A DNA stretch of 64,000 nucleotides from a virus (taxonomy: Duplodnaviria; Heunggongvirae; Uroviricota; Caudoviricetes), in the IMG/VR virus record IMGVR_UViG_3300037471_001079, positions 19,877-83,876 of that record; one strand, 5' to 3'. Shown here piece after piece: positions 43,120 through 58,827 of this stretch. Position 1 is the stretch's first letter. Each line of letters begins with the position of its first letter. A model generated the notes under the pieces. That model was not told where the DNA came from. It saw nothing but the letters and a program-made list of their open reading frames with translations, and did no database searches. Both the position numbers and the translations under genes were made by a program.

Positions 43120-43197
43120 GCTCCCATCGTCTAACTGGCCTAGGACCCGGCGCCGCTCCGCGCCGGAATGCAGGTTCGAATCCTGCTGGGAGCGCCA
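43120..43197 (+). tRNA. tRNA-like gene 1 (78 nt, encoded CCA) with a non-canonical anticodon arm (6-nt or 8-nt loop CCGCTCCG containing CTC)
   Basis: perfect 7-bp acceptor stem GCTCCCA/TGGGAGC, discriminator G, CCA; D arm GTCT/GGAC with A14 R15 G18G19 A21; T arm GCAGG-TTCGAAT-CCTGC; anticodon stem CGGCG/CGCCG closes an 8-nt loop only. Confidence 0.55.
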
Positions 43198-43226
43198 TTT
43201 GCAACGCAATTAAGGGAACTCCTTCC

Positions 43227-43616
43227 ATGTACGACCCCACCTACGCCCAGGCTCTGTTCGACGAGTCCTACACCAAACTGGCAGCCCAGGGCTGTGCCGC
43301 CGTCAACGGCCTCGGCCACTGCAAGTACCGTACCGACCAGGGGCATGCCTGCGCCGTCGGCGTTCTCCTGACCGACGAGGAATACGACCCTCAGATGGAC
43401 GAGGAGAACATGACGGTCACTCTTATGAGCGACCGCGGTCTGCTTCCTGCCAGGCTCGAGCCCTACATCGACCTGTTGGTCGCCCTACAGTCGAAGCACG
43501 ACTACTATCTGTATGCCCTGGACGGCATCAGTTACCCCACCGGCATTCAGCCGTGGAAGAACGAGCTGCGTACCGTGGCCGCGAACCATGGCCTGTCGGC
43601 GGCAATCCTCTCATGA
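43227..43616 (+). CDS. Cys-containing small protein, member of a 3-member paralog family (C.YR...G..CAVG.L.TDEEY.P)
   Basis: GHCKYRTDQGHACAVGVLLTDEEYDPQMD vs 45743 (GKCKYRASDGSVCAVGALIPDEVYDPRVE) and 48003 (PRCLYRGPGGRKCAVGILITDEEYKPEMD); SD AAGGGAA. Confidence 0.5.
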   Translation: MYDPTYAQALFDESYTKLAAQGCAAVNGLGHCKYRTDQGHACAVGVLLTDEEYDPQMDEENMTVTLMSDRGLLPARLEPYIDLLVALQSKHDYYLYALDGISYPTGIQPWKNELRTVAANHGLSAAILS

Positions 43617-43864
43617 GCCGCACCAATCCGCTCTACCCAGTCTACCGTTACAGCTGCACCTTCGCCCCGCCGGGATACGCAACCCCGGCGGTCGTGATCA
43701 ACGAGCAGGCGTTCACCAGCCGCAAAGACTTCGAGCGCCATATCCATGTGTGGAACCTGCATCCACACTATCGGTACGTCGCAGAGCAACCACCCCTTAC
43801 TGGGCGGTTTGATGTACTCAACAAGGTTACTCATGTAAAGCCGGTGCAGAAAGCGCCGTTGTGA
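43613..43864 (+). CDS. Small hypothetical protein (83 aa)
   Basis: ATGA overlap with the upstream gene. Confidence 0.4.
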   Translation: MSRTNPLYPVYRYSCTFAPPGYATPAVVINEQAFTSRKDFERHIHVWNLHPHYRYVAEQPPLTGRFDVLNKVTHVKPVQKAPL

Positions 43865-43897
43865 TGTATTATCCAAGTATTCACAGTGAGCCATCCC

Positions 43898-44143
43898 ATG
43901 CCCAACAAGTATCTGCAAGTCGGCATCGGCGGCTGGAAATGCCCCTGCTGCTTCCCCGGAAGGGGATCAAAGGATCGTTATCTTCGCTTCCGCGCCGCCA
44001 AGCGGCGCGAGGCGAATGCTCATCTCAATGAGGAGATGGAGCAGATCAACCCTCAACCGAGGAGCTACGGCTATGACCCTGGACGAATTCAAACACCTGG
44101 TGGACGTAACACCGATTGTGCCGCCTCTCCTCCACGGCTGTGA
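43898..44143 (+). CDS. Small Cys-rich (WKCPCC) protein; 3' extent uncertain (overlaps the next gene in another frame)
   Basis: MPNKYLQVGIGGWKCPCCFPGRGSKDRYLRF zinc-ribbon-like N-terminus; its C-terminal 70 nt overlap the 44073 gene. Confidence 0.3.
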   Translation: MPNKYLQVGIGGWKCPCCFPGRGSKDRYLRFRAAKRREANAHLNEEMEQINPQPRSYGYDPGRIQTPGGRNTDCAASPPRL

Positions 44144-56413: not shown

Positions 56414-56688
56414 GCAGACGCACCAAATCAATCCCCATCCTCGACCATTTCGAGGTCGAAGGTAACAACGGCGGCAGCTACGTCCTCCTGACCAGGTCAG
56501 AGACCCCCGGCATGGTCCACCTCCAGGTCGGTGAAACTTGCATCCGAACAATCGACCAGCAGATCAGCGTGGTGGCGCTAGCCGCCATCCTGACCGCCGC
56601 TAAGGATCGTGGGTTCCAGACTGTGGTCGACGAGTACATCGGCTACAGCGGTGGCACACCTGTGATGAGTGTGGAGCACGACCTGTGA
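56410..56688 (+). CDS. Hypothetical protein (92 aa)
   Basis: ATGA overlap with the upstream gene. Confidence 0.4.
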   Translation: MSRRTKSIPILDHFEVEGNNGGSYVLLTRSETPGMVHLQVGETCIRTIDQQISVVALAAILTAAKDRGFQTVVDEYIGYSGGTPVMSVEHDL

Positions 56689-57005
56689 CCCGTCACGACA
56701 TCGAGAAACAGATCGTCACCAAAGTCATCGCCGACGCCCTAGCCGCCGGCTACACCCTCGACGTTAATGACGGTGAGGAAACGACCCTCACGAACAGCAT
56801 GGACAAGGCTGCGATCCTCGCAGCCTTGTTCACGACGGACGAGGACTACCTCGTCTATCGCAAGGACGGCAAGAAGGTCGGGTGGGTGCAGTTCGTCTAC
56901 GGCAACGACGGTTACGACGTCATCACCAACCACACCATCAACCTCGACCATGTGCTGCTCGGCGCCACGATGTTGGCAGAAAGGCTGGAAAGTGAGCATT
57001 CCTGA
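56685..57005 (+). CDS. Hypothetical protein (106 aa), GTG start
   Basis: GTGA overlap with the upstream gene. Confidence 0.4.
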   Translation: MTRHDIEKQIVTKVIADALAAGYTLDVNDGEETTLTNSMDKAAILAALFTTDEDYLVYRKDGKKVGWVQFVYGNDGYDVITNHTINLDHVLLGATMLAERLESEHS

Positions 57006-57270
57006 CTTCGACAACAACCAGGCCGTGACCGAAGGCTGGTACATCGCCGACTGTGACGGCTCGGACAACGGGCCGTACCAAATCCAGAAGCTCGACGATG
57101 AAAACGTGTTCTCCAAGGACGACGAGGCCTGGGACCACGTCGTGGCCAAGGCTCGGGAAGGGAGCGCCTACCACCTCAGCGCCATCGAATACATCCGGGT
57201 CTACAACCCGCGCGAATTCATATTCTTCTGCGACTGGACCGATTGGCCAGATGACTGGAAATTGAAATGA
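56992..57270 (+). CDS. Hypothetical protein (~92 aa), start uncertain (GTG)
   Basis: ORF in the 56767 frame; Asp/Trp-rich. Confidence 0.3.
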   Translation: MSIPDFDNNQAVTEGWYIADCDGSDNGPYQIQKLDDENVFSKDDEAWDHVVAKAREGSAYHLSAIEYIRVYNPREFIFFCDWTDWPDDWKLK

Positions 57271-57506
57271 TCGACGCTGCCCGCGACATGATCAACGTGC
57301 TCCTGGCAGCCGGCGAAACTGTGGCCGCCGAGGTCGAGCGTCAGCCTGACATTTGGGAAAAGAACAAGGTTGCCCGCAAGGCCTGCGGCTACCTGGAGGC
57401 CGCCAACGCGCTGCTAGGCCGCTTCTACGAGCTGCATCACGAGATGATCGAGCTGCCGGCGTTTGTGCGATTGCGCAAGCTGCAGCGCACCTATGGAACG
57501 TACTGA
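57267..57506 (+). CDS. Hypothetical protein (79 aa)
   Basis: ATGA overlap with the upstream gene. Confidence 0.4.
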   Translation: MIDAARDMINVLLAAGETVAAEVERQPDIWEKNKVARKACGYLEAANALLGRFYELHHEMIELPAFVRLRKLQRTYGTY

Positions 57507-57507
57507 C

Positions 57508-58827
57508 ATGATCGACGGAAACACCCTCATCGCCTGGGGATTCACCCCAGGTGCCTACTTTAAATATGGCATCGGGCTCGCCAATCGTATGCGTACCGCG
57601 GGCCATGATGATGATGCTATCTTTGTTGAGTTGCAAAAACTGGTCCCCATAGAGACCCAGCTCAGGACCAACAACATCCCCTACGGCTGGTTCTTGGACG
57701 CCGAGACCGAGCTCGAGCGCGAGAACGCCCGCGCCGTCGCCGCCACCATGGACGAGCTGATGCGGACGCCGACGATCGTCGCCGGCGCCGTGATGCCAGA
57801 TGCCTGCCCCGCCGGCACCATCCCTGTCGGTGGCGCCGTCGCTTGCGAGGACGCCATCCATCCCGGCTTCCACTCGTCCGACATCTGCTGCTCGATGGCG
57901 ATGTCCGTCTTCCGCAGGAACGATGACCCGAAGCGGATCTTGGACGCGGTCCAGAAGTGGACTCATTTCGGACCTGGTGGTCGGCAGCACACTGTCATCG
58001 AAAAGAGCTCCGAGATCCTGAAGGCAATCGGAGACAACCACTTCCTGAAGGATCTGGGGAACTTCGCTATATATCACTTCGCCACCCAAGGCGACGGCAA
58101 CCACTTCGCCTATGTCGGGCACCTCCGCTCGACCGGCCAGCCGGCACTCGTGACCCACCACGGCTCCCGTGGTCTCGGCGCCCAGCTTTACAAGAAGGGC
58201 ATGGTGGTGGCTCAGCGCCATACCTCCATCGTTGCTCCCAAGGTGCCTAAGCACAACGCCTGGATCAAGGCATCGTCCCGCGACGGCGAGTCCTACTGGG
58301 AAGCACTGCAGTTGGTCCGCGAGTGGACCAGAGACAGCCATTTTGCGATTCACATCTTGGCTGCGAAGGAGCTGGGAAACCGGATCGAGGATGTGATCTT
58401 CAATGAGCACAACTTCGTGTTCCAGAAGTCTGATGGACTTTTCTATCACGGCAAGGGGGCAACCCCGTCGTGGAAGGGCTTCGACCGCACGCTGATCCCA
58501 ATGAACATGGCCGAGCCGATCCTGATAGCAGCTCCGCGCGATAGGAAGGACGCGCTGGGGTTCGCCCCGCACGGCGCCGGTCGGAACACAAGCCGTACGG
58601 TTCATCTCAAGTCCGGAGGACTTGAGGAGGAACTGGCCAACTTGAAGATCGACGCCAGGTCGTACTCCGGCACGCCGGACTTCTCCGAGCTGCCCAGCGC
58701 CTACAAGAACGCGGCTGCCGTCCAGGCCCAGATCGCCAAGTACGGCCTGGCCGAGGTGGTCGACTATGTCGATCCGTATGGAAGCATCATGGCCGGTGAG
58801 AGTCCGCAGCCTTGGAGGAAGAAATGA
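57508..58827 (+). CDS. rtcB: RtcB-family RNA 3'-phosphate/2',3'-cyclic-phosphate ligase (tRNA/RNA repair)
   Basis: RtcB blocks vs remembered E. coli RtcB: AVMPDACPAGTIPVGGAVACEDAIHPGFHSSDICCSM (AVMPDVHLGKGSTIGSV...GVDIGCGM), QGDGNHFAYV (GTGNHFIEI), HHGSRGLG (HSGSRGIG), YHGKGAT (VTRKGA), APHGAGRNTSR (CSHGAGR). Confidence 0.8.
   Translation: MIDGNTLIAWGFTPGAYFKYGIGLANRMRTAGHDDDAIFVELQKLVPIETQLRTNNIPYGWFLDAETELERENARAVAATMDELMRTPTIVAGAVMPDACPAGTIPVGGAVACEDAIHPGFHSSDICCSMAMSVFRRNDDPKRILDAVQKWTHFGPGGRQHTVIEKSSEILKAIGDNHFLKDLGNFAIYHFATQGDGNHFAYVGHLRSTGQPALVTHHGSRGLGAQLYKKGMVVAQRHTSIVAPKVPKHNAWIKASSRDGESYWEALQLVREWTRDSHFAIHILAAKELGNRIEDVIFNEHNFVFQKSDGLFYHGKGATPSWKGFDRTLIPMNMAEPILIAAPRDRKDALGFAPHGAGRNTSRTVHLKSGGLEEELANLKIDARSYSGTPDFSELPSAYKNAAAVQAQIAKYGLAEVVDYVDPYGSIMAGESPQPWRKK

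Follow-up and report, generated by a model that had tools for sequence, protein, structure and literature searches.

The locus described here raises the question of why a phage would carry several tRNA-Glu-like genes with altered anticodon loops, and whether an RNA ligase encoded in the same region belongs with them. The window, the whole 64 kb stretch of DNA that was analysed, comes from a soil-type tailed phage. Exactly three tRNA genes were detected in it with ARAGORN, all on the plus strand: copy 1 (43120..43197), called with a 4-base 'gctc' anticodon in an 8-nt loop; copy 2 (44886..44962), called as 'ct' and rendered with a 6-nt loop; and copy 3 (46703..46778), called as tRNA-Glu CTC, which an earlier note on this DNA had placed 10 nt too low (46693..46768). 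Each is intergenic and has the same orientation as its flanking genes. We confirmed that all three are tRNA-like genes with a covariance model of the family described below (R1), which was built without the window copies and scored copies 1, 2 and 3 at 84.9, 72.8 and 71.4 bits, respectively, the best remaining match in the 64 kb reaching 13.9 bits. With the Rfam tRNA model (RF00005; gathering score 29), copy 3 scored 48.1 bits and copy 1 scored 42 bits, and copy 2 gave no match even at E<=10.

The three copies are 72-80% identical to each other and share a GCTCCCR/YGGGAGC acceptor stem, a GUCU/GGAC D stem and an encoded G-CCA (in copy 1, the GCCA 3' end is genome-encoded), in agreement with the earlier proposal that they are paralogues, derived from tRNA-Glu(CUC), with an encoded CCA and changed anticodon arms. 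The arms had also been described as near-identical, which holds for the acceptor and D stems but not for the T arms, where the copies differ through compensatory changes (CAGG/CCUG, CACG/CGUG and UCAG/CUGG). Efficient decoding almost universally requires U33 and a loop of seven nucleotides. Direct reading of the sequence gave the loops CCGCUCCG in copy 1, CCCCUCAG in copy 2 and UCCUCAC in copy 3; the last has seven nucleotides and a CUC anticodon, position 33 being C where U is universal, as had been noted before and as the ARAGORN call supports. The minimum free energy fold of copy 1 is a cloverleaf (z=-3.5), which can alternatively be drawn with a 7-bp stem and a 6-nt loop; a C occupies the equivalent of position 37, making a pyrimidine the base 3' of the anticodon, and its loop sequence was found in no other gene of the family. 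In copy 2, the anticodon stem contains a U-C mismatch and the variable region is 3 nt long.

These loops are not peculiar to the window. Copies 1 and 2 belong to a conserved phage tRNA-Glu(CUC) family, of which 26 distinct members were found, with an 8-nt loop of the form C-C/U-N-CUC-R-G. All variable stems of the family covary while the loop stays conserved: among 24 members, 97.2% of cells are paired and 16 of 21 pairs have changes on both sides, a level reached by 0/500 shuffles, with slid controls 34-51% paired. Across these varying stems the loop CCCCUCAG occurs 11 times and CCUCUCAG eight times, among others; the loop of copy 2 is the commonest in the family and is identical in 11 other distinct phage tRNAs whose stems covary. 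The variable loop base is U, C or G and never A in the 26 genes, and several of these variants coexist inside single phages. The invariant C and G at the loop ends can pair to leave a 6-nt loop, which is the minimum free energy fold. Variants with seven nucleotides and C33 also occur in other phages (L126, L131 and L195; the loop is CCCUCAG in L126 and L131), and a 7-nt CUC gene often accompanies 8-nt genes in one phage (the window, L195, L199 and L337). Viral sequence is strongly enriched for the family relative to cellular sequence, with about 36 true family genes in 81 IMG/VR pattern matches compared to 3 among the first 120 genome matches listed. The altered loops of copies 1 and 2 that had been remarked upon before are genuine, and a reading of these copies as one-off products of decay is not supported: a design conserved in dozens of other phages marks a real tRNA variant, as yet unexplained, and not the remains of a gene in decay.

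Comparison with host-type tRNA-Glu, which the earlier note had recommended, located the changes. Cellular tRNA-Glu(CUC) of Hyphomicrobiales matches the phage copies in acceptor stem and D arm, but its loop is the canonical CUCUCAC; in Methylobacterium, these two parts and GCCA are as in the phage, with CUCUCAC at the equivalent site. The changes from the Hyphomicrobiales gene lie solely in the 5' half-loop. In copy 3, C32-U33 has become U32-C33, whereas copies 2 and 1 have an additional C before position 32, with C or G at position 33. All that processing and charging require is retained in the phage genes, including the 7-bp acceptor stem with G73-CCA, the T arm, the CUC anticodon and the 'augmented D helix' of tRNA-Glu (U11-A24, U13-G22 and a 4-nt variable region). 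Given the match in the acceptor and D arms together with the canonical cellular loop, the phage copies are a tRNA-Glu of host type in which the 5' half-loop has been remodelled, and on these shared arms the phage family is placed as a descendant of the tRNA-Glu(CUC) of Hyphomicrobiales-type hosts.

Our preferred reading, to which we give a probability of roughly 0.4, is that these are GAG-reading, host-type tRNA-Glu whose loops may have been reshaped against an attack directed at the tRNA-Glu anticodon loop, presumably as a form of evasion. The tRNAs would be excised from early transcripts and charged by the host GluRS, the charged tRNAs would read GAG triplets, and, with the loop remodelled, a host factor that attacks tRNA-Glu at its anticodon loop, such as an RloC-type anticodon nuclease, would act on them poorly. 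GAG is the dominant Glu codon of the phage (669 versus 277 GAA), with a share of 71% among Glu codons and of 3.7% among codons overall. Expression, charging, triplet decoding and nuclease evasion are inferred, whereas the structure of the RNAs, their family, the conservation, the host-type origin and the site of the changes are shown by the sequences. Changed anticodon loops, put forward earlier as a phage escape route, are a documented strategy by which phage tRNAs evade anticodon nucleases (PMC10264068), and tRNA-Glu is a natural target of RloC, a conserved bacterial anticodon nuclease (PMC3874168), which cuts tRNA-Glu and tRNA-Gln around the wobble base, keying on mnm5s2U34-U35 and cutting both sides of nucleotide 34 (PMC3874168, PMC3458546). 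Excision of this nucleotide splits tRNA-Glu into fragments 1-33 and 35-76, and phage repair is said to be defeated by the lesion (PMC3458546). Religation after such an excision yields a dead 6-nt loop. However, having a CUC anticodon would in itself be enough to escape an mnm5s2U-dependent nuclease, and RloC specifically therefore does not explain the loop change. Other points against the preferred reading are the departure from the near-universal U33 and 7-nt loop, the classical link of enlarged loops with +1 frameshifting, the pairing of the loop ends that leaves a 6-nt loop, the C37-equivalent of copy 1, and the stem mismatch, short variable loop and missing Rfam match of copy 2.

An alternative explanation, which we consider rather unlikely, is that the genes are ordinary GAG-supply tRNAs, the enlarged or C33 loop being a tolerated lineage trait of some cellular and viral tRNA-Glu(CUC) genes without a role in defence, and copies 1 and 2 perhaps partly decayed duplicates. 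The GAG bias would fit such a supply, the mismatch and 3-nt variable loop of copy 2 and the unique loop and C37 of copy 1 would fit partial decay, and in three Coriobacteriia MAGs the Glu slot of a cellular tRNA cluster (Glu-Val...Asp-Phe) is taken by a tRNA-Glu-like gene with the same kind of 8-nt loop, CUUCUCGG; since a cellular tRNA operon has the same enlarged loop, this loop need not be a defence adaptation. It is argued against by the canonical tRNA-Glu(CUC) of the host order, which makes the phage loop derived, by the distinct U, C or G variants found together in single phages, and by the viral enrichment of the family.

The gene at 57508..58827 (plus strand), regarded from the outset as an RtcB, was confirmed as an RtcB-family RNA 3'-phosphate/5'-OH ligase of a divergent phage clade. 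It matched Pfam PF01139 with 96 bits (E=4e-27; gathering cut-off 27) and the solved P. horikoshii RtcB in the PDB (E=1e-8), with the MPD, DICC, HHGSRGLG and catalytic HGAGR motifs aligned; it is 60% identical to RtcB of Bradyrhizobium phage BDU-MI-1 and scores under the NCBIfam equivalog cut-offs. Instead of the 13 kb given earlier, its distance is 14.3 kb for copy 1 and 10.7 kb for copy 3. Its placement in one operon with the tRNAs is not supported, as the region's best intrinsic-terminator match (48811..48835, plus strand; an 8-bp stem with 7 G-C, then TTTTTTG) sits between the tRNAs and the stretch from P507 (described below) to RtcB. RtcB and family tRNAs occur within 0.4-11 kb of each other in only four contigs of one RtcB clade (the window, BDU-MI-1, L127/L346 and L125/L337), the distance to an 8-nt-loop gene being 0.4 kb in L127, 2.3 kb in BDU-MI-1 and 2-4 kb in L337. 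Only 2 of 80 IMG/VR RtcB loci have family tRNAs within 10 kb, and more than 10 contigs with 5-12 kb of flank around a family tRNA have no RtcB. Co-location in the four contigs fits the preferred reading, but the association, and with it the proposed RtcB-tRNA module, is weak, which counts against it. Under the preferred reading, RtcB would be a gene in its own right within this early region, with a general role in sealing RNA ends; it could reseal simple nicks but would not be an obligate tRNA partner.

A stronger association, absent from the earlier note, is that with the P507/P338 pair (48850-52530), a steadier neighbour of the tRNAs than RtcB. P507 (48850..50373) is an uncharacterised phage protein with a distantly GNAT-like core and C-terminal CxxC zinc-ribbon repeats, P375 (50370..51497) is its shorter paralogue, and P338 (51514..52530) resembles MH-clan (M20/M28/M42) dinuclear metallopeptidases (phrog_4191, E=1e-78; profile match to peptidase T in the PDB, E=5.6e-4; motifs SHTDTVH, LGADC and HRxEExGG); all three are on the plus strand. 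P507 homologues adjoin enlarged-loop tRNAs in about 11 contigs, and a P338-type gene always follows the P507-family gene. That this association exceeds that of RtcB, and is unexplained, also counts against the preferred reading. It is improbable, in our view, that the tRNAs are non-ribosomal glutamyl carriers, that is, enlarged-loop tRNAs charged with Glu that would serve off the ribosome as aminoacyl donors to P507/P375, with P338 acting on the product; the aminoacyl-tRNA-dependent transferases Fem, MprF and ATE1 have a GNAT-like fold, as the P507/P375 core distantly has. Two further features adjoin the tRNAs. An intergenic repeat, GACTAACACCCACAGTCAC, with an 11-bp hairpin (43007..43077, plus strand) lies directly upstream of copy 1, with related repeats at 40806, 41495 and 44804, the last upstream of copy 2. 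A small Cys-containing protein (phrog_17693; 43227..43616, plus strand) is encoded immediately after copy 1; it has paralogues at 45743-46096 and 48003-48380, and homologues adjoin family tRNAs in L195, L199 and L200.

Enlarged anticodon loops classically lead to +1 frameshifting. The copies could accordingly be quadruplet-reading tRNAs whose NCUC anticodons (CCUC and GCUC, with UCUC in relatives) would read GAGG, GAGC and GAGA for programmed frameshifting or sabotage of host translation, and the 8-nt loops similar to those of suf tRNAs, the wobble-like choice of U, C or G at the variable base and the 4-base reading of copy 1 by ARAGORN are in keeping with this. We regard it as very unlikely, and the +1 alternative raised earlier found no backing: no window gene requires a +1 shift at GAGN, the sole candidates being ordinary overlapping neighbours, and the phage's own genes do not avoid GAGG or GAGC (202 and 185 in frame, with 195 GAGA), GAG-G being no less frequent than other NNG codons. 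In addition, C rather than U stands at position 33, a pyrimidine follows the anticodon in copy 1, pairing of the terminal C and G can shut the loop to 6 nt, and natural 8-nt-loop tRNAs can read triplets in frame, as in yeast mitochondrial tRNAThr1 (PMC3113583, PMC4267643). Least probable of all is the purely inferential idea of a spare nucleotide, in which RloC-type excision of nucleotide 34 (PMC3458546) from a CC-C-CUC 8-nt loop and sealing by RtcB would give a working 7-nt CCCUCAG loop, for although such loops exist in L126 and L131 and RtcB adjoins 8-nt-loop genes in L127, BDU-MI-1 and L337, the mnm5s2U34 that RloC recognition requires is missing from a CUC tRNA, most tRNA contigs are without RtcB in the available sequence, and the G- and U-variants are poorly explained.

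Several known systems resemble parts of this locus. In Rsr(Ro60)-Y RNA-RtcB operons, tRNA-like RNA genes also lie near rtcB, and YrlA has a tRNA-like domain (PMC4201824). Unlike Y RNAs, those of the window are full 76-78-nt cloverleaves with CCA, and a Ro60/TROVE gene was not found in the window. In phage tRNA repair, T4 Pnkp/Rnl1 counteracts PrrC, and RtcB seals 2',3'-cyclic-phosphate/5'-OH breaks. As in such repair, the early region that holds the tRNAs also encodes a genuine RtcB, catalytic motifs included, and in three related contigs the two lie 0.4-4 kb apart; the linkage is, however, not conserved and is interrupted by a terminator in the window, and no healing partner or nuclease was seen. 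The +1 suppressors sufD, sufJ and SufB2 share the one extra nucleotide adjoining the anticodon, but they are mutants obtained in the laboratory and have U33 and a purine at 37 (PMC4238358, PMC7803779), whereas the phage family is natural and conserved, has C33 and C...G loop ends, and comes with no gene that needs a frameshift. Yeast mitochondrial tRNAThr1 likewise has a natural, selected 8-nt loop and arose by duplication of a canonical tRNA (PMC3113583, PMC4267643); it belongs to another domain of life and another isoacceptor and decodes CUN triplets, reassigning codons, and nothing in the phage suggests reassignment. GNAT-fold aminoacyl-tRNA-dependent transferases (FemA/FemX, MprF, ATE1 and L/F-transferase) are also among the closest systems. 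Nuclease-evading phage tRNAs are known from mycobacteriophages (PMC10264068), from T5 tRNA-Lys against PARIS (PMC11464382) and from phage tRNA-Tyr against retron effectors (PMC11555353). Their changes are substitutions inside a 7-nt loop, whereas the window adds a 1-nt insertion and the loss of U33, and the target would be tRNA-Glu. Similar to them, the window genes are host-type copies in which the acceptor, D and T arms are kept and the differences are concentrated in the anticodon loop.

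ARAGORN called exactly three tRNA genes in the whole window, all on the plus strand: copy 1 (43120-43197, 8-nt anticodon loop CCGCUCCG), copy 2 (44886-44962, 8-nt loop CCCCUCAG) and copy 3 (46703-46778, 7-nt loop UCCUCAC with C33). The stems, the encoded CCA and the loops described in the earlier note are present in the sequence, and its intervals for copies 1 and 2 were right, whereas that for copy 3 had been set 10 nt too low. All three genes are intergenic, lie in the same orientation as the neighbouring genes and have the acceptor stem GCUCCCR/YGGGAGC, the D stem GUCU/GGAC and an encoded G-CCA; they are 72-80% identical in pairwise comparison, with compensatory changes in the T and acceptor stems. 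With the Rfam tRNA model RF00005 (gathering score 29 bits), copy 3 reached 48.1 bits and copy 1 reached 42 bits, and copy 2 was unreported at E<=10. Rfam in gathering mode returned no tRNA from the full 64 kb, and two of the three genes exceeded the gathering score in a 4-kb search; the whole-window miss arises because the speed filters lose atypical, G+C-rich tRNAs. At minimum free energy, copy 1 folds into a cloverleaf. The canonical set of decoding features (7-nt loop, U33, purine 37) was not found in the three copies, copy 1 having a C directly 3' of CUC.

Small paralogous proteins of phrog_17693 (43227-43616, 45743-46096 and 48003-48380) are interleaved with the tRNA copies, and their homologues also adjoin odd tRNAs in three other contigs (L195, L199 and L200). 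A second family of small paralogues, phrog_18067 (45000-45392 and 45385-45750), likewise lies among the copies. An intergenic repeat, GACTAACACCCACA(G/A)TCAC, occurs at 40806-40866, 41495-41566, 43007-43077 and 44804-44860; its start coincides with the stop codon of the gene before it, and a strong hairpin comes next (such as CACACUCUCAC-UCACG-GUGAGAGUGUG). Two of its four occurrences stand directly upstream of tRNA copies 1 and 2, and the repeats may be processing or termination signals that were duplicated along with the tRNA cassette. A weak Twister-sister ribozyme match (45797-45889, plus strand; 22.5 bits against a gathering score of 34, E=0.16) falls inside the coding sequence 45743-46096 and is probably due to chance. 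We rejected the possibility that the tRNAs are fragments marking an attP site, as the genes are complete, form three diverged copies and have no adjacent integrase.

On the minus strand (1-32.7 kb), PHROG scans identified a tape-measure protein, J-like tail proteins, a major head protein, a portal and a large terminase, and on the plus strand, from 33.2 kb, a primase with many small genes, which indicates that the window is part of a tailed phage. Its G+C content is 59%. Megablast of the tRNA region found no close DNA-level relative among GenBank phages, and a blastn search of phages with a 77-nt tRNA query yielded nothing beyond chance partial matches to mycobacteriophage tRNA-Trp. The window's RtcB is closest to its counterpart in Bradyrhizobium phage BDU-MI-1 (amino-acid identity 60%) and next closest to those of Rhizobium phages, and another window protein has homologues in Xanthobacter, Mesorhizobium and Roseixanthobacter genomes; from this kinship we infer that the host is likely a member of the Hyphomicrobiales (Rhizobiales).

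The altered anticodon arms proved to be real and more general than the earlier note had known. In BDU-MI-1 (KY940711), a gene annotated as tRNA-Glu-TTC (17641-17717 of the fetched locus) has an 8-nt loop, CUUCUCGG, with CUC and an acceptor stem of the window type, and is the only tRNA in the 25-kb stretch examined. IMG/VR scans with patterns that fixed the C...G loop ends and CUC, combined with a cloverleaf parser, gave 26 distinct phage genes that combine a tRNA-Glu body with an anticodon stem of 5 bp and a loop of 8 nt. Their loops are CCCCUCAG in eleven genes (as in window copy 2), CCUCUCAG in eight, CCGCUCGG and CUUCUCGG in two each, and CCCCUCCG, CCUCUCGG and CCGCUCCG (the last being window copy 1 itself) in one each. 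We define the family by a tRNA-Glu body and an 8-nt loop, C-Y-N-C-U-C-N-G, enclosed by a 5-bp covarying anticodon stem; copies 1 and 2 fit this definition, and copy 3 is a 7-nt C33 relative. Contigs with two to four of these genes are numerous, and a 7-nt CUC gene often accompanies them (L121, L125/L337, L127, L128, L130, L143, L166, L182, L195 and L199).

The anticodon stems vary between genes and covary, which argues that the 8-nt register is no artefact of how the loop is drawn. In an alignment of 24 relatives, 97.2% of cells were paired and both sides had changed in 16 of 21 pairs; none of 500 shuffles reached this, and slid controls were 34-51% paired. Covariation thus supports a four-helix cloverleaf for the family, as judged from the alignment. 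A covariance model (R1) trained on 23 relatives and zero window sequences scored the three copies at 84.9, 72.8 and 71.4 bits and everything else in the window at <=14 bits. In a loop-unbiased sample, 8-nt loops occurred in 2 of 54 distinct phage tRNA-Glu genes, both CCCCUCAG and both of the CUC type; restriction of enlarged loops to that type (2/10 CUC vs 1/42 UUC) was not significant in this sample (Fisher p=0.09). By these comparisons the odd loops are a conserved design and not decay. We found no description of a natural 8-nt-loop phage tRNA-Glu in the searchable literature, where the family appears to be undescribed.

The comparison with host-type tRNA-Glu drew on PLSDB, which includes some Hyphomicrobiales chromosomes and chromids. 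The tRNA-Glu(CUC) of Methylobacterium aquaticum shares its acceptor stem, D arm and GCCA end with the window genes, is 73-77% identical to the copies and carries the canonical loop CUCUCAC; the loop of S. meliloti tRNA-Glu(UUC) is CUUUCAC. The phage genes are therefore host-type tRNA-Glu(CUC) in which the change is confined to the 5' half-loop. Relative to the canonical loop, copy 3 has U32-C33 in place of C32-U33, and the 8-nt class can be read as having an extra C before position 32 and a G at position 38; in that reading, position 33 is U in 11, C in 12 and G in 3 genes. Directly 3' of CUC, 19 of the 26 family genes have A, 5 have G and 2 have C, and on thermodynamic grounds the loop-terminal C-G is predicted to close and leave a 6-nt loop. 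The identity set of E. coli GluRS comprises U11-A24, U13-G22, a 4-nt variable region without nucleotide 47, G1-C72, U35 and C36. As read from the sequences, the phage genes retain the GluRS identity elements: all three window copies have G10-U11-C12-U13 / G22-G23-A24-C25, G1-C72 and CUC, with a variable region of 4 nt in copies 1 and 3 and 3 nt in copy 2. By residues, the window copies are thus predicted to have tRNA-Glu identity.

The reading we favour, at a probability of roughly 40%, is that these genes encode functional tRNA-Glu(CUC) isoacceptors that would read GAG codons, with a loop reshaped such that a host attack directed at the tRNA-Glu anticodon loop would fail. Glutamate codons in the window comprise 669 GAG vs 277 GAA. 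Mutation of the anticodon loop is a documented escape route of phages (PMC10264068), and the conserved anticodon nuclease RloC, whose natural targets are tRNA-Glu and tRNA-Gln, recognises mnm5s2U34-U35 and cleaves either side of nucleotide 34 (PMC3874168, PMC3458546). Yeast mitochondrial tRNAThr1 decodes triplets despite its 8-nt loop (PMC3113583, PMC4267643), which indicates that such a loop does not preclude triplet reading. The anti-nuclease function put forward in the earlier note is plausible, if unproven, for the tRNAs, and weak for RtcB.

The main rival holds that the loop is a tolerated trait without a defence role. In a pattern scan of bacterial genomes, 3 real genes were present among the 120 matches listed, all three in Coriobacteriia metagenome-assembled genomes (L238 3150-3226, L270 2528-2604 and L248 136-212). 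These tRNA-Glu-like genes have the CUUCUCGG loop and lie 4 nt upstream of tRNA-Val(UAC), near tRNA-Asp and tRNA-Phe, which is a typical cellular tRNA cluster; an enlarged-loop tRNA-Glu(CUC) may therefore be a normal tRNA in some bacteria. We regard this rival as possible but doubtful.

A different role is raised by the neighbouring proteins. When all window ORFs were compared with the fetched loci by tblastn, homologues of P507 (48850-50373), its paralogue P375 (50370-51497) and P338 (51514-52530), all on the plus strand, were found directly beside odd tRNAs in L118, L121/L129, L128, L134, L143, L178, L199, L200, L337 and L346. These contigs (about 11) have almost nothing else in common, and the association of P507/P338 with odd tRNAs was unexpectedly stronger than that of RtcB. 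One contig, L346 (IMGVR_UViG_2600255250_000001), has two P507-P338 pairs, the first preceded by two Glu-like genes and the second by a different, non-canonical enlarged-loop tRNA-like gene just upstream (15995-16067; ARAGORN anticodon 'gata', 4-bp anticodon stem, 10-nt loop containing UUGAUAA). P338 resembles the dinuclear metallopeptidases of the MH clan: it matches phrog_4191 (E=1e-78) and, by profile comparison, peptidase T (E=5.6e-4), and it contains the motifs H-x-D, D, E-E and H. P507 and P375 gave no sequence-family match; their AlphaFold models (pLDDT ~77, cores >90) had only GNAT-fold proteins as structural neighbours, at low Z (5.0-5.6), among them the aminoacyl-tRNA-dependent transferases FemA, FemX, MprF, ATE1 and Sbb17. 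A BFVD structure search with P507 returned uncharacterised phage proteins only. The pair has a common architecture: first comes a protein of ~450-560 aa that combines a distantly GNAT-like core with an invariant S-C-M motif and, at its C-terminus, CxxC repeats, and then a metallopeptidase-like protein of ~330 aa (window 48850-52530, L128, L134, L199, L200, L337, L346 and L409-L413); the metallopeptidase-like member alone has >3500 homologues.

The likeness to these transferases beside odd tRNAs suggests a dedicated aminoacyl-tRNA donor system, in which the enlarged-loop tRNAs would be glutamyl carriers excluded from the ribosome, still charged by GluRS, given that they retain the CUC anticodon and an augmented D helix, and used as acyl donors by P507/P375, whose distantly GNAT/Fem-like fold comes with zinc ribbons, with P338 in the same pathway. 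We consider this unlikely, as the structural similarity of the models is weak, 2 kb of genes and a terminator lie between the tRNAs and P507 in the window, and many phages that lack such tRNAs have the pair, to which the BFVD matches add. Five independently sampled P507 loci all had the P507-P338 pair and none had an odd tRNA, on which we rejected P507/P338 as tRNA-specific partners; L209 likewise had no such tRNA.

Quadruplet decoding or +1 frameshifting by the 8-nt-loop tRNAs, the latter offered as an alternative in the earlier note, is very unlikely. No window gene needs a +1 shift, a search for GAGN sites gave ordinary overlapping neighbours only, and each putative quadruplet occurs ~200 times in frame in genes of the phage itself. 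A codon-pair test revealed no depletion of GAGG or GAGC, GAG-G not being depleted relative to other NNG-G pairs. Moreover, the four-base anticodon is not flanked by U33 and purine 37: both 8-nt copies have C33, and position 37 is C in copy 1.

The gene at 57508-58827 (plus strand) is an RNA ligase of the RtcB family by sequence, as the earlier note had stated. It scored 96 bits with PF01139 (gathering score 27), and its MPD, DICC, HHGSRGLG and HGAGR motifs align to P. horikoshii RtcB, whose structure is solved, and are invariant among five phage homologues, such that the metal-ligand and HGAGR guanylyl-histidine motifs are in place. It falls below the NCBIfam equivalog cut-offs, which points to a divergent clade. 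That it shares an operon with the tRNAs is doubtful, because a terminator-like site (48811-48835; 8-bp stem with 7 G-C pairs, then TTTTTTG), the region's best match, stands between them. RtcB lies 0.4 kb from the tRNAs in L127/L346 (two 8-nt-loop genes), 2-4 kb in L125/L337 (four Glu genes), and 2.3 kb in BDU-MI-1, where the tRNA is upstream; in the window, 10.7 kb separate it from copy 3. The RtcBs of these four contigs, the only ones with the linkage, form one clade (58-61% identity). In a profile scan of 80 IMG/VR RtcB loci with 10-kb flanks, ~55 were without any tRNA, and family members scoring >70 bits occurred in only 2 (L127/L346 and L125/L337). No family tRNAs accompanied the seven closest RtcB relatives (64-67% identity), and in >10 contigs no RtcB was seen in the 5-12 kb that flank the tRNAs. 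The proposed two-layer module of tRNAs and RtcB is therefore at most a clade-specific co-location.

Immediately upstream of its RtcB, BDU-MI-1 has a gene (19442-19996) with the annotation GTP pyrophosphokinase/(p)ppGpp synthetase and with no window homologue. Just downstream of the window's RtcB is an SPFH/Band-7 (prohibitin-like) protein (59374-60240, plus strand), a 45% identical homologue of which lies ~11 kb upstream of RtcB in Rhizobium phage RHEph10. A 256-aa protein (53696-54466, plus strand) passes the cut-off of the NCBIfam equivalog NF052498, 'TIGR-Tas system RNA-guided endonuclease' (108.5 vs 100 bits), and also matches phrog_4285, 'transposase'; no tandem or interspersed repeats that could form a TIGR guide array were found in 52400-57600. 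The 8-nt loop might also provide a spare nucleotide against a wobble-excising nuclease, with RtcB resealing the tRNA to a 7-nt CCCUCAG loop; such a loop occurs in L126 and L131, and we hold this to be the least probable of the readings. An Rsr/Y-RNA-RtcB system was rejected, as the large ORFs in 48850-60240 gave no Ro60/TROVE match.

Standard annotation miscalls these genes, as in the 'tRNA-Glu-TTC' of BDU-MI-1, the 'tRNA-???' of ARAGORN and the copy 2 missed by Rfam. If they read GAG in frame, as we favour, they would widen what the ribosome and GluRS are known to tolerate and would indicate that soil Alphaproteobacteria have a tRNA-Glu-directed defence yet to be discovered. Were they non-decoding, they would form a novel class of functional RNA derived from tRNA and linked to an uncharacterised and very widespread phage gene pair, and were they glutamyl carriers, the phage would encode a modification system that depends on aminoacyl-tRNA and brings a private tRNA of its own. 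An extra loop nucleotide and a missing U33 are usually held to be incompatible with normal decoding. Phage tRNAs are increasingly regarded as tools of counter-defence, the known cases having substitutions within an ordinary 7-nt loop, whereas the phage tRNA-Glu genes described here retain an additional loop nucleotide as an entire family, often without U33.
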